A stretch of 64,000 nt of DNA. Origin: Bacteroidota bacterium. Lineage in GTDB: Bacteria > Bacteroidota > Bacteroidia > AKYH767-A > OLB10. Numbering within the stretch: position 1 is the first letter of the stretch; each line of letters starts with the position of its first letter. Both the position numbers and the translations under genes were made by a program. The stretch covers positions 6,530 through 70,529 of the forward strand of contig JBKCHO010000014.1 in assembly GCA_046302815.1 (NCBI GenBank), written 5' to 3'. Below the pieces are notes generated by a model. The model had not been told where the DNA came from, did no database searches, and worked only from the letters and a program-made list of their open reading frames with translations. Below are positions 3,534 to 56,600 of this stretch, one piece after another.

Positions 3534-4730
3534 ATGAAAAAATTCATTTATGTAGCCCTTGCGTTCCTTTGCTTTTTGGGGTATTCCTGCAAAAAGTATG
3601 ACCCCATAGAGCCTGGCAACAATCCCATTCCACCGCCAGATCCACAAGAGGAAAAATTGCGGATGAACCAGATTCAAATTATTGCATCCCACAACAGCTA
3701 CCGGCAGATGACTACGGACACCGTTTTCGCCTTTCTTTTAACGGTTCAAGCTTTGATACCACCGCAATATGATCCAACAACTTTGGATTATGATCACTTG
3801 CCGATAGAAGTTCAGATGAGCCAGCATGGAGTAAGGGGACTGGAACTTGACATCTATAATGACCCGACTGGCACCGCATTCGCCGACCGATTTGCAAATT
3901 CTTATGTCGGCCTGCCGGTGGCATCCGGAATTCTAGAGTTGAGCCAACCAGGCATGAAACTGTTGCACATTAAGGATGTAGACTATAACAGCCTTTTCCC
4001 AACTTTTAAATTAGCCCTTCAAGCCATCAAATCGTGGTCGCAATCTAAACCGAACCATTTGCCCTTGTTTGTAAATGTTGAAACCAAGTCCGACTCGCCA
4101 GGAGATGACCCATTTCTACTTTCTCAAGGATTCACACCTGCCCCCAACTGGGATGCAGCTGCCGCTGAAGCCTTGGAACAGGAAGTACGGGATGTTTTTG
4201 GCCCCGATCTAAATGGATTATTCACTCCCGACATGCTTAGGGGACCTTACACCTCTTTAGAGGAAGCGGCCCTACAAGGAAATTGGCCGTTTCTTAATGA
4301 ATGCAGGGGTAAAATCGTATTTATTATGGAAGGGAACGCCGTGACTTTTTACAAACAAGGACATCCATCTTTAACCGGAAGGTCTATGTTTGTGTATGAT
4401 GAGCCCGGACAACCTGAAGCGGCTTTTGTTCTTCGAAATGACGCTAGATCCGATAGCACTCAAATAAGGAGCTTGGTGGAGGTTGGATACATGGTAAGAA
4501 CTAGGTGTGACGCAGGAACTATTGAAGCTAGATTGGGGGATTATTCGGGCATGTACGCCGCCTTCGCATCTGGTGCGCAAATACTATCCACCGACTATTA
4601 TCGACCAGATGCTCGAGCCGGACAACCTGGCTGGTCCAACTACCAAGTGAAGTTTCCCGGGGGATACATAGGACGAAAAAATCCAGTGAATGCAATTGAA
4701 ATCAATGCAGACGAGGGTTTAACAGACTGA
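3534..4730 (+). CDS. Lipoprotein of the PI-PLC-like phosphodiesterase family (Ca-dependent bacterial PI-PLC-like)
   Basis: Lipobox LGYSC, SHNSY, GVRGLELDI, LLHIKDVD, and SGAQILSTDY. Confidence 0.75.
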   Translation: MKKFIYVALAFLCFLGYSCKKYDPIEPGNNPIPPPDPQEEKLRMNQIQIIASHNSYRQMTTDTVFAFLLTVQALIPPQYDPTTLDYDHLPIEVQMSQHGVRGLELDIYNDPTGTAFADRFANSYVGLPVASGILELSQPGMKLLHIKDVDYNSLFPTFKLALQAIKSWSQSKPNHLPLFVNVETKSDSPGDDPFLLSQGFTPAPNWDAAAAEALEQEVRDVFGPDLNGLFTPDMLRGPYTSLEEAALQGNWPFLNECRGKIVFIMEGNAVTFYKQGHPSLTGRSMFVYDEPGQPEAAFVLRNDARSDSTQIRSLVEVGYMVRTRCDAGTIEARLGDYSGMYAAFASGAQILSTDYYRPDARAGQPGWSNYQVKFPGGYIGRKNPVNAIEINADEGLTD

Positions 4731-6807: not shown

Positions 6808-6978
6808 ATGGCTAAAAACAAACAAGAGTGTCCGTCATGCGCCATGATGATCGACAACGGATTGGATGAATGTCCAATTTGCGGCTATGAGTTCCCTAAA
6901 CAGGCATCCAGCATCAAATGGGTTGCCATACTGCTTTTGGTGGTCATTGCCTTTTATTTCATTTTAAGGATTATTTAA
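6808..6978 (+). CDS. 56-aa zinc-ribbon (CxxC-x12-CxxC) protein with a C-terminal TM helix; missing from the ORF track
   Basis: Translated by hand: MAKNKQECPSCAMMIDNGLDECPICGYEFPKQASSIKWVAILLLVVIAFYFILRII*. Confidence 0.75.
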   Translation: MAKNKQECPSCAMMIDNGLDECPICGYEFPKQASSIKWVAILLLVVIAFYFILRII

Positions 6979-7017: not shown

Positions 7018-7048
7018 ATTGCTTTTTAAAAACCGTGATGTATATTTG
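7018..7048 (+). promoter_or_regulatory. Bacteroidota housekeeping promoter (-33/-7)
   Basis: TATATTTG at 7041-7048 matches TAnnTTTG. ATTG lies 19 nt upstream. The promoter sits directly before the riboswitch P1. Confidence 0.7.
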
Positions 7049-7051
7049 CAG

Positions 7052-7145
7052 CGCATTCCGAGTTTCCATGCTTCATTGCGTGGCGCCAACCGAGACGGAA
7101 CTACGGTGGTAAAATAATGCGGACCTGGCCAGGTCAAAAATTCCG
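7052..7145 (+). promoter_or_regulatory. SAM-I/IV-variant riboswitch aptamer (copy 1)
   Basis: P1 CGCATT(7052-57)/AATGCG(7116-21); J1/2 CCGAG; P2 CCATGC/GCGTGG; P3 CCAACCG/CGGTGG with the AA/U SAM-binding internal loop; no P4; P5 GACCT/AGGTC; PK2 between loop CGGAA(7096-7100) and TTCCG(7141-45). Confidence 0.82.
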
Positions 7146-7356
7146 GGAAATCCCCCGAATACTATCATTGTTCCGTCGCGTTTGCACCGACCTGGTGTGC
7201 ATTTGAATCATTTGTCTGTCACATTGATACAAAGATGTGATGGGCTTATCAAAATGCTCATGCTCATTTTGAACCCGCATCTTGTACACAAACAACGATG
7301 AATTAAAAATTTCAGTAATTATATTCTTAAGGAAGAACAACTAAAAACTCTGACAG

Positions 7357-7569
7357 ATGAAAAACGAAACGAAAAAAAAGAAAAAGATTTTATTCTTAGA
7401 CGAGACTAGGCCAATAAAGCCGTCAAGGACATACTCAGAAGTGATGCGTTCTTGGGATGAAGAATTGTTGTCATTAAATCTCATTACGCCGGGGCAATTA
7501 ATGAAGGAACCGCCGAGCCAACCAGACGATACGATAAAAGTAAAATTCATAAAAAAATCTAAAAAATAA
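7357..7569 (+). CDS. Hypothetical 70-aa Lys-rich protein (orfA), paralog of 8004..8216
   Basis: ATG start behind an A-rich leader. It aligns without gaps to 8004..8216 at ~43/70 identity by hand count, which supports coding status. Confidence 0.7.
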   Translation: MKNETKKKKKILFLDETRPIKPSRTYSEVMRSWDEELLSLNLITPGQLMKEPPSQPDDTIKVKFIKKSKK

Positions 7570-7616
7570 TAATGGCCACATAAATTAACTTATATAATCA
7601 TAAACCCAAAGAAAAA

Positions 7617-7943
7617 ATGAAAAATCACAAAGCAAAATCACAAAAGGTCCGTTCAGAAAAAGTAGATGACAAAAAATATAATTCCTCCAAGCAGGAAGCC
7701 TACATCGAATCCATCCTTCAAGTGTTGAAACAAAAAATGCTTGAATCTCAAGAACGAAAGTCCCAATTGCCCCTGTTTATCCGCAGCACGGAAGATATGA
7801 TGAAAATAATAAACGATAAGAAAGATAAGCAAAGGCATATCGTCCGCAATCAAGCAAACATTACTGCTTTTTTCCAAAAAAGGTCAGAAATGACTGCACG
7901 AACAAAAAAGGAACAAACTGATGAATCGTCAACGGAAATTTGA
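7617..7943 (+). CDS. Hypothetical 108-aa basic, probably helical protein (orfB)
   Basis: ATG behind an A-rich leader, co-oriented between the two paralogs. No recognisable motif. Confidence 0.55.
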   Translation: MKNHKAKSQKVRSEKVDDKKYNSSKQEAYIESILQVLKQKMLESQERKSQLPLFIRSTEDMMKIINDKKDKQRHIVRNQANITAFFQKRSEMTARTKKEQTDESSTEI

Positions 7944-8003
7944 AAGACATCAAATGCATTTCCTTTAAAAATAATTATCATACAAAATTAAAATCTGAAT
8001 AAA

Positions 8004-8216
8004 ATGAAAAACAAAATGAAGAAAAAGAAAAAGATTTTCTTTCACGACGCGACAAAACCGCCGAAACCGTCAAGGACATACTCAGAGGATATGCGTAAAT
8101 TAGATGAAATACTATTGTCTCTTAATCTTATTTCCCCAGAGAATTTAAAAAATCCGCCACCAGAAAACCATGACAATACCATAACGGTTACATTTATTCG
8201 ACGACCAACCAAGTAA
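8004..8216 (+). CDS. Hypothetical 70-aa Lys-rich protein (orfA'), paralog of 7357..7569
   Basis: Shares KKKKKI, KPSRTYSE.MR, LLSLNLI.P and D.TI.V.FI with orfA. Confidence 0.7.
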   Translation: MKNKMKKKKKIFFHDATKPPKPSRTYSEDMRKLDEILLSLNLISPENLKNPPPENHDNTITVTFIRRPTK

Positions 8217-8279
8217 ATCAGCTCTTGACCCTCTATCAGACCATGAAAAATGATTGAATCATAATACCCGAAAATAAAC

Positions 8280-8381
8280 CGCATCCAGAGTTCACTGCAT
8301 GTCAGTGATGCCAACCGGCCCAGTGCGCCCGGTGGAAAATTGATGCGCCATGGGATGTAAATCATCTCACCATGGAAGCGC
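8280..8381 (+). promoter_or_regulatory. SAM-I/IV-variant riboswitch aptamer (copy 2), upstream of metK
   Basis: P1 CGCATC(8280-85)/GATGCG(8342-47); J1/2 CAGAG; P2 TCACTG/CAGTGA; P3 CCAACCGG/CCGGTGG with the AA/U loop; P5 CCATGG-GATG..CATC-CCATGG; possible PK2 GCGC(8325-28)/GCGC(8378-81). Position upstream of metK is typical for SAM riboswitches. Confidence 0.88.
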
Positions 8382-8389
8382 CGTGCTAC

Positions 8390-8426
8390 AGCCCCTGTTC
8401 CGCGGAAGCCGGCAGGGGCTTCTTGT
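8390..8426 (+). terminator. Riboswitch-associated terminator hairpin before metK
   Basis: AGCCCCTG(8390-97)/CAGGGGCT(8413-20) followed by TCTTGT; imperfect U tract. Confidence 0.65.
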
Positions 8427-8467
8427 ATCTAAATCAAATCATAATAACAACCTAAAAACAAAGAACC

Positions 8468-9946
8468 ATGACAACAAATCCACGCCTGATTACTTCCGAA
8501 GCGGTTTCGGAAGGCCACCCAGACAAACTCGCAGATCGCATATCCGATGCCATCTTGGATGCATACCTGGAGGTTGATCCAAAAGCCAAAGTAGCATGTG
8601 AAACCCTGATCACCACGGGTAAAGTGATTATTGCCGGTGAGATATCGGCAACTGGCAAGCCTGCAAATACATTGATTGAAATAGCTCGTGAAGTGCTAAG
8701 GCAAACAGGATATACATCCGAAGCCGTCGGCTTCAACTGTGATACCGCTACCTATATCGACCTTACACACTCCCAAAGTCCTGAGATCTCCTCTAGTGTT
8801 GAACACGGAGGGGCAGGTGATCAAGGCGTGATGTTCGGATTTGCCTGTGATGAAACACCGCAGCTCATGCCGTTAGCGATCACCATCAGCCATGAGATAC
8901 TGGAAGCATTGACGGAAAAAAGGAAATCCGGAGAGATGCCATTCCTTCGACCAGATGCAAAATCACAGGTGACCATCCGCTATGAATATGGTCAACCAAC
9001 AGCGGCACATGTGGTGATTGTATCCACCCAACACGATGAAACGATTGAGCGCAGCCGATTACGAAATATCATAGAGGATCAAGTGGTGAGTCCTATTCTT
9101 CGAAAACATTTTGGAACCGGCAATGCAATGGTCATCGTAAATCCATCAGGTAGCTTTACGATTGGAGGCCCTCATGGAGATACAGGATTAACAGGTCGAA
9201 AGATCATTGTAGACTCCTATGGTGGTGCTTGTCCACATGGAGGAGGTGCGTTTTCGGGGAAAGATGCCAGCAAGGTGGACCGGTCGGCAGCATACATGGC
9301 GCGGTACATCGCCAAACATGTCGTTGCAGCAGGACTCGCCACCAAGTGTACCGTCCAGCTTAGCTATGGCATAGCCATAGACTCCCCCATATCCATTGAC
9401 GTGGACCTCTATGGAAGCTCCGTATATGTCGATAGCGGCGTTTCAAATGCATGCAAACGAATCTTCGACCTGCGCCCATCCAAGATTGCAGAAAAACTCG
9501 GACTGAACAAACCGATTTTCGCCGCAACAGCATCTGGTGGACATTTCGGAAGAGAGGAATTTCCATGGGAGCAACTGGACCCTGGTATCATTGCGGCTTT
9601 ACAATCGGATGAGGAGACACGAATGGACAAGGTTGAGCTGGAGCGGAGAGAACGGGCGCGAAAAGAACATGAAGGAAAACAAAAATACGCGTTACTTCCA
9701 ACGCAGGAACTCATCAATACATTCAATAAGATTGGTAGTATGGAGTTTGAAACCATTCCTCCCAGCGCAATGCTTGCAATCAAGTTCATCCACCATGAAC
9801 TCTTCCAACGAGGAATCAACTGCGACCTGATCAATCAGCGGAATGAAGCGGGCAATATCACGGGATGCACCTTCACCATTCCCATAAGAATTGAAGACAT
9901 TGATGGCAGACCAACCTTGGTAAGGGCGAATGGAGAAATGGAATAA
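8468..9946 (+). CDS. metK: S-adenosylmethionine synthetase with a ~107-aa C-terminal extension
   Basis: SEAVSEGHPDK, ACET, AGE, GAGDQG, RPDAKSQV, GDTGLTGRK, GGGAFSGKD, KVDRSAAY and FPWE (residues 365-368) are all present. The ORF then continues to residue 492. Confidence 0.93.
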   Translation: MTTNPRLITSEAVSEGHPDKLADRISDAILDAYLEVDPKAKVACETLITTGKVIIAGEISATGKPANTLIEIAREVLRQTGYTSEAVGFNCDTATYIDLTHSQSPEISSSVEHGGAGDQGVMFGFACDETPQLMPLAITISHEILEALTEKRKSGEMPFLRPDAKSQVTIRYEYGQPTAAHVVIVSTQHDETIERSRLRNIIEDQVVSPILRKHFGTGNAMVIVNPSGSFTIGGPHGDTGLTGRKIIVDSYGGACPHGGGAFSGKDASKVDRSAAYMARYIAKHVVAAGLATKCTVQLSYGIAIDSPISIDVDLYGSSVYVDSGVSNACKRIFDLRPSKIAEKLGLNKPIFAATASGGHFGREEFPWEQLDPGIIAALQSDEETRMDKVELERRERARKEHEGKQKYALLPTQELINTFNKIGSMEFETIPPSAMLAIKFIHHELFQRGINCDLINQRNEAGNITGCTFTIPIRIEDIDGRPTLVRANGEME

Positions 9947-9958
9947 CCGTCAGTTGCA

Positions 9959-10354
9959 ATGAAAATGGAAAGAGATGAATTGAAGAAACAGCTTGAGCTA
10001 TTCAAAAAGGAGTATCAACAAATATTTGGTAAAATGACCGACCAGAAGTTAGTGGACTCCCACAACAGTGCTTGCAAAATAAAAGCATGGGGCTTGTTCG
10101 TTGCCGTTTATACCGAAGCAAGGAAGGAAGAGCTGCTGAAACGTTTTCCCGATACCACAAACGTAATCGAAAAAAAAGGTCATGAATCCTATTCTTACAG
10201 CTTACGACCGCGAGGTGTTTGGATCGCATATATCAACGGGGTGAAAACCTTGGCTTGCTCCGAGCTTGACGACCAGCCTCCAACCAAACCGAAAACAGAG
10301 CCCTTTAACAAGGATCCGGATGGACATCAACTGGATTCTATGAGCTTGAACTGA
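9959..10354 (+). CDS. Hypothetical 131-aa protein (orfC), probably cotranscribed with metK
   Basis: Starts 12 nt after the metK stop. Its N-terminal half shares a residue pattern with the MetK extension. Confidence 0.7.
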   Translation: MKMERDELKKQLELFKKEYQQIFGKMTDQKLVDSHNSACKIKAWGLFVAVYTEARKEELLKRFPDTTNVIEKKGHESYSYSLRPRGVWIAYINGVKTLACSELDDQPPTKPKTEPFNKDPDGHQLDSMSLN

Positions 10355-37866: not shown

Positions 37867-37950
37867 GCCCGGGTGGCGGAATTGGTAGACGCGCTGGTCT
37901 CAAACACCAGTGATAGCAATATCGTATCGGTTCGACCCCGATCCCGGGTA
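37867..37950 (+). tRNA. tRNA-Leu(CAA)
   Basis: Acceptor stem GCCCGGG/CCCGGGT plus discriminator A; D-loop GGAATTGGTAGAC; anticodon arm CTGGT-CTCAAAC-ACCAG; long variable arm; T-arm ATCGG-TTCGACC-CCGAT. CCA is not encoded. Confidence 0.96.
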
Positions 37951-55733: not shown

Positions 55734-55754
55734 TAATGGCCTTAGGGCTATTAG

Positions 55755-55786
55755 AAAAAACCCCGATGGATCCGTCGGGGTTTTTT
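55755..55786. terminator. Bidirectional intrinsic terminator
   Basis: AAAAAA-CCCCGATG-GATC-CGTCGGGG-TTTTTT. Confidence 0.85.
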
Positions 55787-55811
55787 GTTTTTTATAGAAT
55801 CGAAAGAGGAA

Positions 55812-56600
55812 TTAAAGGCTTCCCGTTCGACCACCATCCACAGGTACATTGATACCCGTGATGTAGGATGCGGCCGGTGATGCCAAAAAAGCGATTGCGT
55901 TTGCAATCTCTTCAGGTTTTGCGAAGCGTCCCATAGGTATCTCCGCGATCATTTCATTTTGTAAGTCAACTACGGTCTTACCCGTTTTTGAGGATTTTGC
56001 CTCCATTAAGGAGGATAGTCTACCCGTAGAGGTAGCTCCAGGCAGAACATTATTCACTGTAATACCGGCTGAAGCTACTTCCATCGATAAGGTTTTCGCC
56101 CAATTGGCAACAGCCGCTCGAATGGTATTCGATACACCCAAGCCCTTCAATGGCTGTTTAACAGAAGTGGAGATTACATTGATGATGCGACCATAACCAG
56201 ATTCCCGCATCCCAGGTATCAATGCCTGCGCCATGATGTGATTGCAAACCAAATGCTGACGGAATGTAGCTTCAAACTGCTCGATTCCGGCATCCACAAT
56301 CGGACCTCCTGATGGTCCGCCTGTGTTATTAACCAGAATATGCGCGCGATTACCTTTGGCAAGCCAATCCTCAATAGCCTTCTTGACTTGATTCGGATCG
56401 GAAAAATCAGCGACAATATAACCATGTTGGACATCGGAAACAGGTGAAAGCTCATTAAATGCTTCTTGTAACGCCTGCTCATTACGCGCCACTAAAGTGA
56501 CTGCGGCGCCGAGCGAGCTCAGCTCGCGGGCAGCGGCCAAGCCGATGCCTTGTGTGCTTCCGCACACAACGGCGCACTTACCTGACAGAGAAAGATTCAT
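55812..56600 (-). CDS. SDR family oxidoreductase
   Basis: GSTQGIG, LVNNTGGP, SNTIRA in place of YxxxK, NNVLPG and ITGINVPVDGG. Confidence 0.9.
   Translation of the reverse strand: MNLSLSGKCAVVCGSTQGIGLAAARELSSLGAAVTLVARNEQALQEAFNELSPVSDVQHGYIVADFSDPNQVKKAIEDWLAKGNRAHILVNNTGGPSGGPIVDAGIEQFEATFRQHLVCNHIMAQALIPGMRESGYGRIINVISTSVKQPLKGLGVSNTIRAAVANWAKTLSMEVASAGITVNNVLPGATSTGRLSSLMEAKSSKTGKTVVDLQNEMIAEIPMGRFAKPEEIANAIAFLASPAASYITGINVPVDGGRTGSL

Follow-up and report, generated by a model that had tools for sequence, protein, structure and literature searches.

In the original description of the SAM-I/SAM-IV variant riboswitches (RF01725; Weinberg et al. 2010, PMC2864571), the P2 helix is plain, i.e., it has neither the internal loop nor the K-turn of SAM-I. 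Tandem arrangements of riboswitches for the same ligand are also known: the portion of a 2022 review available for comparison (PMC9481103) includes TPP, SAM-I, and SAM-II doublets, the SAM-II/SAM-V arrangement of Pelagibacter, and mixed tandems of SAM-II with SAM-I/IV. In the pseudo-cooperative tandems that this text covers, two complete aptamers for one ligand stand in series on the same strand, the first right after the promoter, and each has its own downstream platform.

The stretch of DNA analyzed here (64,000 nucleotides, hereafter the window) carries two SAM-I/IV aptamers on its forward strand, copy 1 at positions 7052 to 7145 and copy 2 at positions 8276 to 8382, the only such elements found in a scan of the 2.7-Mb genome. 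Unlike the known SAM-I/IV elements, copy 1 belongs to a Bacteroidota MAG lineage (the genome encodes a T9SS sorting domain), and the genes nearest to it encode small uncharacterized proteins and not methionine or SAM enzymes. As in the pseudo-cooperative tandems, the two complete aptamers lie in series on one strand, the first right after a promoter, each preceding a candidate platform. A homotypic SAM-I/IV doublet is, however, not among the tandem classes in the available portion of the review. The arrangement further differs from known tandems in that its members are ~1.1 kb apart with three translated genes between them, a nested mini-operon that the first switch would also regulate. What is new, then, is a homotypic SAM-I/IV pair or array in the metK leaders of this Bacteroidota family, split by translated genes; the doublet, and the arrays of three to four aptamers described below, are additions to the tandem riboswitch catalogue. 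We consider it reasonably probable that, taken as a whole, copy 1 is a functional switch with its own promoter, the upstream member of an ancient metK-leader pair that was later split by an insert of ORFs, and that it acts by attenuation.

A sequence-only reading had identified copy 1 as a SAM-I/IV aptamer with an intact SAM-binding core, and every feature that it listed was found where it had been placed. Read from the sequence, P1 pairs 7052-7057 with 7116-7121, J1/2 is CCGAG, P2 pairs CCAUGC (7066-7071) with GCGUGG (7078-7083), P3 (CCAACCG...CGGUGG) spans 7085-7110, P5 pairs 7122-7126 with 7131-7135, and the PK2 pseudoknot joins CGGAA (7096-7100) to UUCCG (7141-7145). Copy 1 thus shares with the described SAM-I/IV elements (PMC2864571) the P1-P2-P3 core with CCAACC/GGUGG and the J1/2 GA, a P2 without internal loop, a 3' hairpin after P1, a pseudoknot between the P3 loop and the 3' tail, and a position upstream of metK. 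The SAM-clan core is complete, including the A-U/U-A pairs of P1 and the bulged A in P3, and PK2 comes directly after an A-run, as in other family members.

The covariance-model search aligned 7048-7151 with all of the RF01725 model (positions 1-99 of 99) at 38.8 bits, 2.3 bits lower than the curated gathering score of 41.1. The E-value is 8e-5 when computed locally, 0.01 over the window, and 1e-4 over the whole genome. Its orthologues in two genomes of the same genus, G005 and G003, scored 42.9 bits, above the cutoff, and 39.5 bits, respectively. The shortfall of copy 1 is explained by its longer P2 and J1/2 and by the Rfam model, which misplaces P2 (marked "vvv" in the alignment). The stem itself is intact, a continuous 6-bp helix with a 6-nt loop (-8.8 kcal/mol), and differs from that of G005 by two compensatory pairs (CCAUGC/GCGUGG versus CCCUAC/GUGGGG). 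An Rfam scan of the window at the gathering threshold did not report copy 1; this negative is uninformative, since the same scan also missed a 52.8-bit tRNA that was found in E-value mode. The tRNA in question, at 37867-37950 (+), has a long variable arm. A weak His_leader-like match (33.4 bits; cutoff, 49) was also seen at 55751-55883 (-), ending in a hairpin with a U-tract.

Of ~43 SAM-I/IV aptamers gathered from this bacterial family, 32 were aligned. The 18 fixed pairs of P1, P3, and P5 are paired in 93.8% of cases, compared to 25-41% with slid partners; both sides change in seven of the 18, and the observed covariation score was reached by none of 500 shuffles. Copy 1 has all 24 invariant and all nine near-invariant columns of this alignment. 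The difference at the last P1 pair between copy 1 (U-A) and copy 2 (C-G), cited earlier as covariation, is real, and both states are common across the family (C-G in 15 sequences, U-A in 13, and U-G in 4). P2 hairpins form from unrelated sequences in all parts of the family. PK2 of copy 1, also noted earlier, is present and correctly placed, with family-wide support that is marginal, own versus shuffled tails giving P values of 0.025 to 0.17 according to the tail window used. Two flavors of aptamer can be distinguished: type A, with P1 GCAUU and J1/2 UCCGA, to which copy 1 conforms, and type B, with P1 GCAUC and J1/2 AGGA or CAGAG, to which copy 2 conforms. Judged by these sequence comparisons, copy 1 is a genuine SAM-I/IV aptamer with an intact core and would be expected to bind SAM. 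The Rfam cutoff hence misses true SAM-I/IV members in the clade of this bacterium.

Downstream of the aptamer lies an anti-aptamer segment (7160-7180, forward strand). Its distal part, GTTCCGTCGCG at 7170-7180, is complementary at 10 of 11 positions to the P3 5' strand and loop (7091-7101), as had been pointed out, and its proximal part, 7160-7166, to the P3 3' strand (7105-7111). The anti-P3 duplex (-22.7 kcal/mol, compared to -14.6 ± 2.6 in dinucleotide shuffles; P ~0.005) exceeds chance and is conserved, and the pairing is present in the full-length minimum-free-energy (MFE) fold of the window, G003, and G005, the substitutions of G005 in the anti-P3 segment (UACUAUC to UGUCAUC) preserving it. 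Cotranscriptional folding, proposed earlier as a check, returned a switch from aptamer to anti-aptamer. In stepwise folding the aptamer is the MFE structure through nt 7170. Once nt 7175 is included, the anti-aptamer fold replaces it, 7170-7177 pairing with the loop and 5' strand of P3 and 7160-7166 with the P3 3' strand; at nt 7200 and beyond, the P1 5' strand, now free, and J1/2 pair with 7189-7200, a stretch in the loop and 3' strand of the hairpin H2 described below. This anti-P1 complementarity is by itself not significant (P ~0.1), and P1 5' strand plus J1/2 (7053-7064) is the conserved partner of 7189-7200. The predicted advantage of the anti-aptamer fold over the aptamer fold without ligand is ~16 kcal/mol, implying that control is kinetic.

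A short hairpin, H2, follows at 7183-7214 (forward strand). Its stem, UGCAC (7183-7187) with GUGCA (7197-7201), leads into an interrupted U-rich tract, UUUGAAUCAUUUGU. The hairpin had been singled out in the sequence-only reading; it is present and conserved, its top C-G pair being replaced by U-A in G005, in a comparison of only three divergent platform versions and hence of low covariation power. It is missing from the ligand-free folding path and appears once the aptamer is held in place; the longest fold computed (to 7260) has H2 in a shifted register even without the aptamer. With 5 bp, a 9-nt loop, -6.2 to -6.6 kcal/mol, and an interrupted U-tract, H2 compares poorly with the intrinsic terminators of E. 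coli or Bacillus, and "clean terminator" would overstate it; the promoter/terminator scan did not call it. Copy 1 thus has a significant anti-aptamer segment but a hairpin of only -6.6 kcal/mol, compared to -19.8 kcal/mol for that of copy 2.

Two other platform arrangements were considered and rejected. GACCTGG at 7189-7195 does repeat the copy at 7122, as had been observed; its proposed competition for the P5 3' strand, CCAGGTC, was not borne out, the pairing not being conserved in G003 or G005 and P5 being formed in every predicted state. Translational control of orfA, the next ORF downstream (start at 7357, as previously indicated), does not fit a conserved platform that ends ~150 nt before the start codon, nor a first downstream gene that varies between loci.

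Kinetic transcription attenuation at copy 1 is, on these folding predictions, the likely mechanism. The aptamer would fold first, and the ~30 nt of further transcription from 7146 to 7175 would be the time available for SAM to bind. Without SAM, the emerging 7160-7180 segment would invade P3, the freed P1 5' strand would capture 7189-7200, and, with the 7183-7201 hairpin blocked, RNA polymerase would read through. With SAM, P1, P3, and PK2 would be locked, the hairpin and its U-rich tract would form, and a fraction of the transcripts would end near 7205-7215, termination at H2 being the presumed output step.

The same architecture could conceivably work through Rho or an RNase, with SAM exposing the C-rich, unstructured 7146-7182 and H2 being incidental or a pause element. 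We rate this output as unlikely, if the strongest of the alternatives. Three points count in its favor: enterobacteria have well-established examples of Rho-dependent riboswitches (mgtA, ribB); H2 lacks the strength of a classical intrinsic terminator; and 7146-7182, fully paired in the ligand-free fold, is largely single-stranded in the aptamer-constrained one. It leaves aside, however, the conservation of H2 with its one compensatory pair in G005, and termination of the intrinsic kind seems to be the habit of the family: in G016, for instance, the first-position aptamer leads to an 8-bp stem followed by UCUUUAUUUUUU. Intrinsic attenuation is favored because first-position aptamers in relatives precede hairpins with U-rich tracts.

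Copy 1 is preceded by a Bacteroidota-type promoter (7019-7048, forward strand) composed of a -33 TTG (7019-7021), a 19-nt spacer, and the -7 box TATATTTG (7041-7048). TTG/TAnnTTTG is the Bacteroidetes sigma-A promoter consensus, and the box is conserved in G005 (TACATTTG) and G003 (TAGTTTTG), its spacing to P1 unchanged. Immediately upstream of the promoter, at 6808-6978 (+), is a gene for a 56-aa zinc-ribbon membrane protein (UPF0547-like), a position conserved in G005 and in five metagenome contigs (L018 to L022); the upstream gene of G003 differs. The 7041-7048 box is the sole forward-strand TAnnTTTG between the zinc-ribbon gene and metK, and none occurs upstream of copy 2 in the window, an absence that does not exclude an internal promoter there. 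No hairpin with a U-tract was found between 7205 and 8280 in the promoter/terminator scan or by hairpin folding. The lone promoter box and the lack of a terminator support one transcript running from the first switch through the ORFs and the second switch into metK, and a single transcript from copy 1 into metK is what we infer from the sequence.

Copy 2, the type B aptamer, matches RF01725 at 36.2 bits over 8276-8374, ending 94 nt upstream of metK; its orthologues in G005 and G003 score 27.2 bits. P1 pairs 8280-8285 with 8342-8347, P5 is extended, and GCGC/GCGC is a PK2 candidate. Its putative platform (8390-8429, forward strand) is terminator-like, a GC-rich 10-bp hairpin of -19.8 kcal/mol followed by UCUUGUAUC, and is kept in G005 and G003, the U·G pairs of the window being U-A in G005. 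The metK gene (8468-9946, forward strand) encodes a 492-aa SAM synthetase with the N-terminal, middle, and C-terminal S-AdoMet_synt Pfam domains (E values of 1e-33 to 1e-61) and a C-terminal extension of ~110 aa. Its best matches in the named-genome scan were from Acidobacteriota and others, at ≤55% identity, from which no conclusion was drawn; the scan supplied no related leaders. Next comes orfC (9959-10354, forward strand; 131 aa). A "domain X" links the MetK extension (9580-9946), orfC, and stand-alone, riboswitch-controlled ORFs of genus g7 (L105, L108, L110, L006), with pairwise E values of 1e-4 to 1e-8 (4e-5 to 6e-6 for orfC) in a small sequence set; neither orfC nor the extension could be assigned to a credible family with Pfam, NCBIfam, or PHROGs. 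The order of the proposed unit would be promoter, switch 1, orfA-orfB-orfA', switch 2, metK, orfC, with switch 1 gating all downstream genes and switch 2 gating metK again.

Comparison of orthologous loci indicates how this order arose. In G005 the sequence is rmuC, a yjbR-like gene, the zinc-ribbon gene, copy 1, 127 nt, copy 2, and metK, with no ORF between the two aptamers; in G003, copy 1 is followed by ~550 nt with an orfB remnant, copy 2, and metK. Three metagenome contigs (L018, L019, and L022) have copy 1, orfB, orfA', copy 2, and metK, and the window and L024 have copy 1, orfA, orfB, orfA', copy 2, and metK. The metK gene is downstream on the same strand in all of these loci. The A-then-B order, with the same flavors and adjacent aptamers, recurs in two sister genera of the family, g12 (64-nt spacer, then metK) and g7 (73-nt spacer; A, B, a 106-aa ORF, A, metK). 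The synteny series and the A-then-B order in g12 and g7 argue that the pair is ancient, that adjacency is ancestral, and that the ORFs are a derived insertion. The ~1-kb orfA-orfB-orfA' insert (roughly 7210-8225) has a GC content of 32-37%, compared to 42-50% in the flanks, consistent with a foreign origin as judged by composition.

In G003, orfB is decayed (32% identity, two in-frame stops), yet the window and G003 share 93% identity over the aptamer and platform; in G005, where orfB is absent, the copy-1 leader is 81% identical. Because the leader is conserved where orfB is decayed or absent, selection on copy 1 appears to be independent of the ORFs, with metK as the ancestral target and the ORFs as passengers. 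On sequence comparison, then, the ancestral metK leader has an A-then-B pair, in which copy 1 is the upstream, type A partner. This overturns the framing of a switch placed in front of genes with no known methionine role: copy 1 is the first gate of the metK leader, and in G005 the aptamer pair sits directly upstream of metK. The loci form a series from an ancient tandem pair, through gene insertion between its members, to decay or retention of the insert.

Alternatively, there might be two independent units, copy 1 serving orfA-orfB-orfA' only and copy 2 plus metK having a promoter of their own in 8216-8276. The case for a second promoter is that its absence is judged by a single motif, that a near-consensus TAATTTG precedes copy 2 of G005 by 17 nt, and that a sigma-70-like match (TTGACC, 18 nt, AATGAT) occurs at 8225-8254; the number of such matches in the region, however, equals chance expectation. 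A SAM-I/IV aptamer may also serve orfA-family genes directly, as seen in an unrelated, 34%-GC metagenome contig (L122:908-1694), where a type A aptamer (47 bits) is followed by a 130-aa ORF and two orfA-family genes. (The 130-aa ORF is uncharacterized, and the second orfA-family gene is cut by the contig end.) Against two units stand the retention of copy 1 in G005 and G003, which have no intact ORF there to control, and the lack of anything terminator-like after orfA'. Moreover, in the multi-aptamer leaders examined, including those of sister genera, the TAnnTTTG box occurs only before the first aptamer of a unit, second or later aptamers being consistently without one; in g7, the aptamer before metK follows the 106-aa ORF with no promoter box. 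We therefore think separate units improbable and retain the single transcript as the preferred reading.

That copy 1 might be a functionless relic, left behind when the insertion parted it from metK, is very improbable: a subthreshold Rfam score and a weak terminator would suit a relic, but not an intact set of invariant core columns, a promoter, aptamer, and platform that are 81-93% identical over three species where the adjoining DNA is unalignable or decayed, or compensatory changes in P2 and H2. Least credible of all is a recent local duplication of copy 2 that accompanied the duplication of orfA/orfA', paralogues that do flank orfB, given that the flavors are distinct (GCAUU..UCCGAG in A, GCAUC..CAGAG in B) and that three genera carry both in the same order, an arrangement that G005 shows with no orfA present.

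Turning to the inserted genes, orfA (7357-7569; 70 aa) encodes a small basic protein of a phage-associated family, orfB (7617-7943; 108 aa) a protein predicted to form a single long charged helix, and orfA' (8004-8216; 70 aa) a paralogue of orfA, all on the forward strand. The two orfA paralogues are 58% identical, with a dN/dS of ~0.13 at saturated dS, and substitutions in the orfA frame are biased to third codon positions (112/123/258 by position); by these two signs they are real genes. Pattern scanning of orfA used a 6-sequence subset, the full alignment of 16 sequences being too diverse for it. orfB is lineage restricted, with only four relatives among 5.8e9 proteins, all of 108 aa; its dN/dS is 0.3-0.57, with conservation over the C-terminal 80 residues. 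In the AlphaFold2 models, residues 5-106 of OrfB form a helix (pLDDT 82), and OrfA is mostly coil with one helix. Searches of Pfam, NCBIfam, and PHROGs left both proteins without a credible family. SAM repression of orfA and orfB, which had been proposed earlier, remains the natural reading: the ORFs lie downstream with nothing terminator-like between, and the L122 locus offers a parallel. Since that arrangement is independent of the window, SAM control of the orfA family seems to have arisen or been kept more than once. We conclude that orfA, orfB, and orfA' are probably SAM-repressed passengers inside the metK leader.

An exhaustive profile search recovered an orfA family of ~70-aa proteins with 17 cluster representatives. 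Members were found in 19 uncultivated viral contigs from IMG/VR (L130 to L148), the match lying at ~4001-4222 in each, and in all 19 the orfA-family ORF occupies the +1 frame of a giant ORF (at least 2300 aa). In nine of ten representatives this ORF is the longest alternative-frame open run, 72-79 codons compared to a median of 5-6, which makes it a candidate overprinted gene by sequence. With eight other contigs (L119, L120, and L123 to L128) included, the orfA-family ORFs are 70-75 aa long and lie in this frame within giant ORFs whose lengths run from 2300 to 2700 aa or more. The phage contigs with orfA-family members have a GC content of ~35%, and some are complete with terminal repeats. 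The orfA DNA of the window still resembles the giant-protein frame, which is interrupted there by stops. The deposited phage collection had no orfA match, no SAM-I/IV aptamer was found in the viral contigs with orfA homologues, and the phage loci carrying the orfA family had no orfB homologue.

These observations invite a broader conjecture, which we regard as doubtful: that the multi-aptamer metK leader is a landing pad capturing small foreign genes into a SAM starvation regulon, that orfA is a domesticated phage +1-frame ORF, and that at low SAM the targets of the orfA/orfB, domain X, and 106-aa proteins are MetK or SAM-dependent processes (restriction, phage defense). Landing inside a riboswitch leader would be a route for new genes to gain ready-made metabolite control. 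OrfA, OrfB, domain X, and the 106-aa family are in any case SAM-linked candidates, one of them tied to an overlapping gene in giant phage proteins, and the finding would gain weight if the small proteins do act in that manner.

The g7 metK leaders likewise nest small ORFs between aptamers, but the nested genes are unrelated to those of the window (the 106-aa and domain X families instead of orfA and orfB), and the insertion point is after B and not between A and B. Five such leaders (L105, which is G085:C8, and L106 to L109) contain 3-4 SAM-I/IV aptamers within 1-2 kb, in the order aptamer, 155-167-aa domain X ORF, aptamer, aptamer, 106-aa ORF, aptamer, and metK (487 aa). The 106-aa family, with the motif MKPGSIV.CVDD...GPPGV.LEE, is also found after a tandem pair in G005:C73. 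Elsewhere, SAM-I/IV aptamers of 53.8 bits (L005, which is G001:C271) and 54.5 bits (L113, which is G049:C68) directly precede a gene for an AAA+ ATPase of 483-523 aa with no obvious methionine role.
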